A stretch of DNA of 62,979 nucleotides from Spirochaetota bacterium (GTDB lineage: Bacteria > Spirochaetota > Spirochaetia > Treponematales > UBA12059). Every line of letters begins with the position of its first letter. Positions within the stretch are counted from its first letter, which is position 1. The stretch is taken from assembly GCA_020048755.1 (NCBI GenBank), contig JAIFMD010000029.1, forward strand, positions 1 through 62,979, in the 5' to 3' direction. A program made the translations under genes and the position numbers. Positions 1 through 1,037 of the stretch are shown here, piece by piece. The notes under the pieces are model-generated. The model had not been told where the DNA came from, searched no databases, and saw only the letters and a list, made by a program, of their open reading frames with translations.

Positions 1-1037
1 CCATCCTGTTCTATCAGGATGCGCCCGGCTCCAACCAGACCCAGCGCCTGGGGTTGTACTTTCCACGTGATTATCTGCCCCTGACGACGGATCTTTCCTC
101 CCGCGCAGCGGATGTAGACTCTGGCAGTCCGGACGAGTCTGGATACTCTGAAGAACCGCGTCCTCAGTGGCGGGACGCTCCGCTCGTGGCCCTCGTTGTC
201 TTTGCGCTGGTGATAGCCATATCCCTGCTGTTGTACCGCAAGCGCGTGCAGGCGCATGCCAAGCGCTCCGCAATCGTTGAAGGCATCGCGTGGGCAGGCG
301 ACGCCTGGACTCCACCAAAGCTGTTTGCCGGTACCTACCAGGTGCCAGGCAAGGTACCTGAAGACCTGCACCCCGTGGAGGCTGCGCTGCTCCTGGAACT
401 GGCCCTGCCGCGCATAGCGGCCATCATGGTGGACGGTCTGGCGGCCCAGGGGCTCGTGGCCGTGGAGCGCGAGGATCCGCTGCGGCTCAGGTTCCTTTCG
501 GAACGCAAGGCCAGCGACGATATCGAGGAGCGTTTCCTTGCAGCCTTCGACGCCGACGGCAACGTGCTTCCGGGCTTGCTGGCCGATTTCTTCGAGGAAT
601 CGATAAAGCGCCTGCAGGAGAAGATCTGGGACTGCGACCTCGAAGCAACCAAGGCTTTTTATAGAAAGAAGATCCTGGAGGCACAAGTCAAGGCCGAGGA
701 AGTTGATTCCTGGGATGAAACGAGACGCCTTGACTATTACCGCCACAACCACGCCTGGATGTACTGGCGCAGCTATGGCATCGTCTATGGTCGACCCTCG
801 TACATGGCCGGTATCAGGCTCCCCGAAGGTATGTCTGCCGGTTATGCTGATTTCATGCGCTCTGCAGTGTGCTATTCCGGCTGTTTTACGCCGGCCAATG
901 TCGGCACGGTTGACGCTTGCCATTCAGCCTGCCACAACGCATGCCATGACGCCTGCCATTCAGCCTGTCACAGCGCCTGCCACTCCGCGTGCCACAGCGC
1001 CTGCCATAGTGCCTGCGTCTCGGGGAGTTCGCATTGA
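1..1037 (+). CDS. Single-pass membrane protein with a C-terminal (A-C-H-x)9 CXXX-repeat tail. It is either 5'-partial or starts at TTG 54.
   Basis: The reading frame (codon phase from nt 3) is open to the window edge, and TTG at 54 is the first possible start. One hydrophobic helix '[20 protein letters not shown]' is followed by '[10 protein letters not shown]' (positive-inside), so the C-terminal ~240 aa should be cytoplasmic. The tail reads '[40 protein letters not shown]'. The stop overlaps the next gene's TTG (TTGA at 1034-1037). Confidence 0.7.
   Translation, partial: [344 protein letters not shown]
915..1022 (+). repeat. Nine in-frame 12-bp tandem repeats (gcYtgYcaYnnn) encoding (Ala-Cys-His-x)9
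   Basis: Read directly from the sequence: gcttgccattca / gcctgccacaac / gcatgccatgac / gcctgccattca / gcctgtcacagc / gcctgccactcc / gcgtgccacagc / gcctgccatagt / gcctgcgtctcg. Confidence 0.95.

Follow-up and report, generated by a model that had tools for sequence, protein, structure and literature searches.

Why should a bacterial membrane protein end in a run of Cys residues spaced exactly four positions apart, with the gene of a radical S-adenosylmethionine (SAM)/SPASM enzyme starting on its stop codon? The question is raised by the left end of a 62,979-nt contig of a Spirochaetota bacterium (contig JAIFMD010000029.1 of assembly GCA_020048755.1, forward strand; this whole stretch of DNA is called the window below), where a tandem array of 12-nt units codes for the C-terminal tail of such a protein. 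The array is real and translated. The tail is most probably a substrate of the adjoining enzyme, which we call the maturase. We infer this because the two genes are translationally coupled and occur together in two domains of life, because the enzyme has a predicted recognition domain, and because the tail is a probably flexible, Cys-rich and predicted cytoplasmic segment, which follows a conserved motif.

The original prediction, made from the sequence of the window, had described nine in-frame units of exactly 12 nt with a His after each Cys. The period was borne out, and nine Cys residues do stand at exact period 4, but only eight of them form Cys-His pairs, the ninth unit being ACVS. The array lies in the frame of an open reading frame (ORF) that stops at 1037, and no stop codon is found ahead of it; its peptide starts with ACHS and is followed by GSSH and the stop. 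At the DNA level all nine units differ: their pairwise identity averages 68%, and no exact internal repeat is longer than 14 nt. The units differ at third codon positions and in the codon for Ser, Asn or Asp, with switches between TCN and AGY codons for Ser (TCA, AGC, TCC, AGT and TCG are all used). The array is detected by Tandem Repeats Finder, and a degenerate DNA pattern for three consecutive A-C-H-x units gave six matches, all within the array, and matched in none of 100 dinucleotide shuffles. A strain that is 92.7% identical to the window over 3226 ungapped bases carries the same nine units in two independent assemblies (ENA and JGI contigs, loci L085 and L086), and an assembly artefact is therefore excluded. 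Within the array the strain differs from the window at four nucleotides, all of them synonymous. Over the whole 344-codon fragment of the host gene there are 83 nucleotide and 9 amino-acid differences.

Comparison with more distant relatives led to the same view. A protein search with the tail protein yielded 91 homologues, most of them about 550 aa long and ending in (ACHx)n-ACVSGGxH. A pattern scan with one genome per species gave at least 599 matches, of which at least 555 were confirmed relatives. The best 80 of these at least 555 loci, which were analysed further, are nearly all from Spirochaetota, the cultured Rectinema subterraneum among them. Because the 80 loci were ranked by their similarity to a query with nine units, arrays of that length may be over-represented among them; the nine-unit layout AC(H/Y)S-ACHN-ACH(D/S/N)-ACHx-ACH(S/D)... 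was common to 69 of 83 loci from different species. Across these loci the host proteins are 42-88% identical to that of the window, and for Ala, Cys, His, Ser, Val and Gly all of the synonymous codons occur. Since the residues are conserved despite this full use of synonymous codons, the tail peptide is under strong purifying selection, with synonymous change saturated, just as had been predicted from the codon differences within the array. A hypervariable low-complexity repeat generated by slippage was ruled out by the synonymous differences between units together with the conservation of the layout across species. The suspicion that copy number varies was right in part: the 92.7%-identical strain and most Spirochaetota representatives have the same unit number, while complete tails in the family as a whole have 3 to 11 period-4 Cys. 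Unit number is stable among close relatives and differs between lineages.

In some database homologues (P0006, P0016, P0019, P0020, P0024 and P0089) the tail follows the +1 frame (PATAPAT...) or continues into the maturase. We attribute this to indel errors in the assemblies and rejected the use of an alternative frame; in P0020, several stretches are out of frame. Cys-His repeats also occur in a protein of another kind, as an internal insert of an MnmC-like methyltransferase (P0090, PF05430).

The constraint on individual positions of the unit was estimated from 64 complete tails with 380 units, taken from the non-redundant protein matches. The residue after Cys is His in 364 of the 380 units and Cys+3 is Ala in 375, while Cys+2 is the least constrained position (239 Ser, 105 Asp, 12 Asn, 11 Gly, 8 His, 3 Ala and 2 Thr). 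The earlier suggestion that the +2 residue accepts a thioether is weakened by these counts, because Gly and Ala occur there and Gly has no beta-carbon.

Only the last part of the host protein is encoded in the window; about 234 codons, for a signal peptide and a DUF2207-like ectodomain, lie beyond its left edge. The full-length orthologue of the 92.7%-identical strain (L085:2964-4700, 578 aa) has the order signal peptide, ectodomain of about 240 aa, one transmembrane helix, cytoplasmic domain of about 200 aa, conserved motif, array and cap; an AxA motif was read as the signal peptide cleavage site. In some relatives the ectodomain reaches the DUF2207 N-terminal model PF09972 (31 bits in homologue P0010, cut-off 24.4). 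This model is reached neither by the full-length L001 protein nor by the window fragment, in which the N-terminal part is missing. By its sequence features the host is a conserved cytoplasmic-tailed membrane protein of about 578 aa, with a signal peptide and a DUF2207-like ectodomain. AlphaFold2 (AF2) places a helix at residues 60-94, in agreement with the transmembrane helix. From the transmembrane helix and the positive-inside rule everything downstream, the tail included, is predicted to be cytoplasmic; this is the compartment where radical SAM enzymes work, and it supports the role of the tail as substrate. The cytoplasmic domain contains a helix-helix-strand-strand unit (window positions about 363-497), which we read as winged-helix-like, and a WDCDxEAT motif (window positions 621-662). 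A Foldseek comparison of this domain with the PDB gave no significant fold match (the best was GOLPH3/Vps74, E = 2.2). One homologue of the tail protein has a sub-threshold match to TIGR04222.

The FM(R/A)SxxC(F/Y)xGC(F/Y) motif between the cytoplasmic domain and the array is kept in almost all of the 80 tails listed, and is a candidate for a leader-like recognition element. In the AF2 model the pLDDT (the confidence score of AF2) of the tail is about 43, beside a confidently folded domain, and DSSP assigns a helix to it at low confidence; the tail is probably flexible.

The maturase scores well above the cut-offs of the radical SAM (PF04055, 74.1 bits, cut-off 29.5) and SPASM (PF13186, 35.4 bits, cut-off 21.5) models of Pfam. 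Both Cys patterns of the SPASM region, CX9-15GX4C and CX2CX5CX3C, are present (C347-x12-G-x4-C365 and C402/C405/C411/C415), and a further Cys downstream of the second pattern, C430, occurs in only 10 of 76 orthologues. The N-terminal part appears to be a PqqD-like peptide-recognition domain: PF05402 is matched by 19 of 28 orthologous N-termini (best E = 3.8e-10), and a precomputed PqqD match exists for the orthologue of locus L082. No NCBIfam model was reached at its cut-off by the maturase, the tail protein or the product of the third gene described below. An exact look-up of the window maturase found no record. Among the PADLOC defence models the maturase showed only a generic radical-SAM core likeness to pVip (54 bits), and the other three cassette proteins had no match.

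The overlapping C-x-x-x-C-H of the tail could be taken for variant c-type haem attachment sites, as the motif is literally CX3CH and the top NCBIfam matches of the maturase are the tetrapyrrole-modifying AhbD and NirJ2. However, the AhbD/NirJ scores (117-129 bits, cut-off 500) are typical of any SPASM enzyme, and cytochrome c maturation is extracytoplasmic whereas the tail is predicted to be cytoplasmic. Moreover, odd-numbered and three-Cys arrays are common, and the (CA)n tails of a sister family (see below) have no His. We find haem attachment barely credible.

That a maturase gene adjoins the array, as originally predicted, holds wherever enough downstream sequence exists: an orthologue stands next to the tail gene in 77 of the 80 loci, the other three being cut off by the end of a contig. 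The same pairing is found in the distant bacterial loci L081, L082 and L084 and in the Asgard archaeon L083, whose maturases share 34-47% identity among themselves and 37-44% with that of the window. In L083 the order is maturase, a protein with ectodomain and anchor, and a soluble tail protein, which has the appearance of the same system in split form. The coordinates of all these features are collected in Table 1.

Table 1. Features of the tail-maturase cassette at the left end of the window
Feature	Position	Strand	Basis or remark
Gene of the tail-bearing membrane protein, last 344 codons and stop	3-1037	+	ORF list; cut by the left edge of the window
Single transmembrane helix (predicted), followed by RKR	177-236	+	Hydropathy scan of homologues, positive-inside rule
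Conserved cytoplasmic domain (predicted)	240-851	+	AF2 pLDDT > 90 over about residues 110-280
FM(R/A)S-x-x-C-(F/Y)-x-G-C-(F/Y) motif	852-887	+	9 residues upstream of the array; two more Cys with CxxxC spacing
Tandem array	915-1022	+	Nine 12-nt units coding for (ACH[S/N/D])x8 + ACVS
Shine-Dalgarno-like GGGGAG	1022-1027	+	Inside tail codons, 6 nt upstream of TTG; function inferred
C-terminal cap G-S-S-H and TGA stop	1023-1037	+	Family consensus ACVSGG[A/S][H/R]
Gene of the radical SAM/SPASM enzyme (predicted maturase), 442 aa	1034-2362	+	TTG start overlaps the TGA of the tail gene (TTGA)
PqqD-like peptide-recognition (RRE) domain (predicted)	1034-1318	+	Orthologue matches to PF05402
CX3CX2C radical-SAM cluster motif (C113, C117, C120)	1370-1393	+	Kept in 75 of 76 orthologues
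SPASM region with seven conserved Cys (C333, C347, C365, C402, C405, C411, C415)	2030-2278	+	Comparison of 76 orthologues
Third cassette gene, 295 aa, four predicted membrane helices and a cytoplasmic alpha/beta domain	2338-3225	+	No significant match in family and fold searches

The original prediction had offered soft-metal binding by the tail as an alternative. The strict linkage bears on the possibility that the tail is not modified at all and binds soft metals or Fe-S clusters, as a metallochaperone or a Csp-type store does, the Cys at i and i+4 sharing one face of a helix. For the radical SAM enzyme the tail would then be no more than a donor of clusters or electrons, if the enzyme did not act on another target altogether. 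Such a role would agree with the eight Cys-His pairs and the CxxxC of the preceding motif, with the helix assigned by DSSP at low confidence and with the hosts, all of which look like anaerobes as judged from the record titles. However, it leaves unexplained why the tail should co-occur so strictly, across domains of life, and be translationally coupled with an enzyme that has a recognition domain; in addition, the tail peptide had no match among PDB sequences at E <= 10, and hence none to a solved metal-binding protein. We consider an unmodified metal-binding tail quite unlikely.

If the tail is a substrate, what could be done to it? We propose that the maturase would dock via its N-terminal PqqD-like domain and work along the repeat, modifying each A-C-H-x unit by radical formation of an intramolecular thioether from the Cys to a neighbouring residue. 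As acceptor, the alpha- or beta-carbon of Ala would be no less likely than the +2 residue. The floppy Cys/His tail would be converted into a cross-linked ladder, which would still display its His side chains. Thioether formation is what most characterised SPASM enzymes acting on Cys-rich cores do. The seven conserved SPASM Cys residues are compatible with one auxiliary cluster with an open site for a substrate Cys, as is reportedly the case in CteB. Action on every unit of a repeat has precedents: in a series of CX3D motifs, PapB joins Cys to the beta-carbon of Asp by six thioethers (PMC10739248), and TvgB modifies each unit of a TVGG repeat (PMC9062424). Cys thioether (S-C) cross-links, one per unit, are nevertheless suggested tentatively, by analogy, as the likeliest chemistry, and may well turn out to be wrong. 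The complete explanation, a protein-embedded tail docked and thioether-modified by a coupled maturase, is the best we can offer, and we regard its chances as evenly balanced.

Several observations weigh against this explanation. That the tail is modified is itself deduced from sequence. The N-terminal domain of the window maturase matches the PqqD model with only 12.3 bits (E = 0.22, cut-off 23.4). The enzyme is far from the thioether-forming families (StsB 75 bits, cut-off 625; AlbA 52 bits, cut-off 850; CteB 27.5 bits; SkfB 36 bits), and its best matches are the generic SPASM enzymes AhbD, NirJ2, PqqE and MftC. The acceptor of the thioether is not identifiable from the sequence, and the near-invariant His is left unexplained by a simple thioether model and would fit metal binding better.

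A related family of tails also bears on the chemistry. When the tail-less fragment was searched against 1.84 billion cluster representatives, the 128 matches included relatives with a Gly-rich tail ending CACACACAG(C)ACACAGGGR (P0261, P0264, P0284, P0285, P0297 and P0302). These (CA)n tails contain no Ser, Asp, Asn or His, and Cys and Ala are the only residues that they have in common with the ACHx tails. Two sister neighbourhoods were examined: in L090/L091 (L090:5001-6662) the gene downstream codes for a radical SAM/SPASM enzyme with 30-35% identity to the enzymes of the ACHx family, while in L088/L089 (L088:5001-6650) there is no radical SAM enzyme downstream. The homologous SPASM enzyme behind a (CA)n tail argues that the pairing of scaffold-tail and SPASM enzyme is older than the ACHx repeat. 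An Asgard protein, P0088, combines both tail types.

It is in this light that other Cys- or His-directed chemistries have to be weighed, with a built-in metal-binding or redox cofactor array as the product. The candidates are conversion of Cys to formylglycine or thioaldehyde (as by anSME), thio-oxazole formation (SbtM) and Cys-His cross-linking. Ala, Cys and His are the constrained positions of the unit, the sister tails share only Cys and Ala with it, and the maturase belongs to no curated family and has a weak match to SbtM (61.6 bits, cut-off 350), all of which would suit such a reaction. On the other hand, the similarity to anSME and SbtM does not rise above the generic SPASM level, and the anSME target motif, C/S-x-P/A-x-R, is missing from the tail. 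We rate such a reaction as unlikely. A more novel idea, which we hold to be doubtful, is that of an undescribed tail modification: a Cys/His- or Cys/Ala-derived metal-binding or redox-active rod, and not an ordinary sacti-/ranthi-thioether. Spirochaetota and Asgard archaea alike would have kept this system, along with two more protein families that have no known fold.

The fate of the product can be judged from the neighbouring genes. Neither a protease nor an exporter is conserved among the cassette neighbours in the loci examined, and the modified tail therefore probably stays attached, as a protein modification and not a secreted peptide. A recognition-domain radical SAM enzyme beside a repetitive Cys-rich C-terminal segment, with a leader-like motif ahead of it, admittedly resembles the arrangement for a ribosomally synthesised and post-translationally modified peptide (RiPP), whose core would be cleaved off and released as a natural product. 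But besides the missing protease and exporter, the "leader" would have to be a membrane protein of about 540 aa with conserved domains of its own, and the tail is predicted to face the cytoplasm. Release as a RiPP is thus very improbable.

The third gene follows the maturase in 70 of the 80 loci, and also in the distant L081 and L084. All 213 homologues of its product are named hypothetical. The AF2 model is of good quality (pLDDT 89), and comparison with PDB folds gave no significant analogue (the best was YbjN, E = 0.2). We propose that this membrane protein would be an obligatory partner of the other two. In L082 its place is taken by a 395-aa protein, which looks like a coiled coil. In about half of the spirochaete loci a two-helix membrane protein of about 205-220 aa is encoded upstream, overlapping the start of the tail gene (L001:4676-5338, L085:2353-2967, L047:4685-5308); it belongs to no family, and may be a fourth member of the cassette. 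Small proteins with a membrane anchor and an apparent zinc ribbon (paired CxxC) are encoded beside the cassette at L082:10490-10981 and L090:4628-4996.

It is instructive to compare the cassette with known systems. The nearest is the Cxxx-repeat radical-SAM target system, which consists of the target TIGR04117, the maturase TIGR04115 and the partner TIGR04116, corresponds to Pfam PF27846 and is described in silico only. In both systems a C-terminal run of Cys-Xaa-Xaa-Xaa units is encoded beside a radical SAM/SPASM enzyme, but the target is a peptide of about 100 aa in the one and a membrane protein of about 578 aa in the other. Precomputed PF27846 ("tSAM_targ_Cxxx_rpt") matches exist on many of the homologues; our local Pfam, apparently without this model, matched neither those homologues nor the window protein. 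The window protein did not match TIGR04117 at E <= 0.01, and the homologues reached 15.3-18.7 bits (cut-off 50). TIGR04115 was absent from the 25 best NCBIfam matches of the maturase (all at least 50 bits), and from the matches of three related enzymes at E <= 1e-25. The product of the third gene is not TIGR04116, because no NCBIfam model matches it. The tail is best described as a predicted Cxxx-repeat radical-SAM target that falls outside the curated models and appears in a form embedded in a membrane protein.

Other resemblances are by analogy only. In PapA/PapB (freyrasin) and in the sacti- and ranthipeptide systems (CteB, NxxcB, AlbA, StsB) a SPASM enzyme installs one thioether per Cys-motif unit, but there is no specific sequence relationship to the enzyme studied here, whose presumed unit is A-C-H-x with a variable fourth residue. 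In contrast to those systems, neither a protease nor an exporter belongs to the cassette, and the substrate would be a membrane protein of large size. QhpD and anSME, also SPASM enzymes, modify Cys residues of proteins that remain whole (QhpC and sulfatase, respectively); their target motifs, however, are unrelated and unrepeated and are not tails of membrane proteins. In the TvgA/TvgB system, similarly to what we propose, a radical SAM/SPASM enzyme modifies a four-residue repeat unit by unit, but its target is Val, the product is a small exported peptide, and the system includes an oxidase, a peptidase and a transporter (PMC9062424). With DUF2207 (YciQ-like) proteins the host protein shares the arrangement of N-terminal ectodomain, membrane anchor and repetitive C-terminal tail. 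The tails of ordinary DUF2207 proteins are Gly-rich, and, unlike the present one, these proteins are not known to be linked to a radical SAM enzyme. In the literature searched, no relevant or experimental study was found on DUF2207 together with radical SAM enzymes, on the repeat type or its family accessions, or on SPASM enzymes and Cys-rich tails.

Three other parts of the window deserve mention. The segment 3227-11681 (about 8.45 kb) has the look of an inserted island: the 92.7%-identical strain (L085 and L086) lacks it, and there the third cassette gene is immediately followed by rsmH. Judged from their translations, its ORFs resemble a TetR-like regulator, a 753-aa protein, a 320-aa secreted protein, an M20-type peptidase, an enolase-superfamily enzyme and an MFS transporter. 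At 11617-12700 an rsmH-like gene is seemingly split into ORFs in different frames (11617-12237 and 12245-12700), by either a frameshift or a sequencing error; the alignment to L085 is gapped near 12206, within this gene. A tandem repeat of period 45 with CACAGAGA sub-repeats lies at 16046-16163, apparently between genes.

The system is widespread in anaerobes, with at least 555 related stretches among the one-genome-per-species representatives. Three of the four conserved cassette proteins are without family, fold or literature, and no curated NCBIfam model covers the maturase. Radical SAM/SPASM maturases have proved a fertile ground for new peptide chemistry. Almost all of those characterised act on small exported peptides, whereas the predicted substrate of the enzyme described here is the tail of a large membrane protein. 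Since the tail offers nine countable sites and Rectinema subterraneum is a cultured carrier, both the chemistry and the cellular role are directly testable. Should the chemistry prove to be new, the importance of these proteins for radical-SAM and RiPP enzymology would be all the higher.

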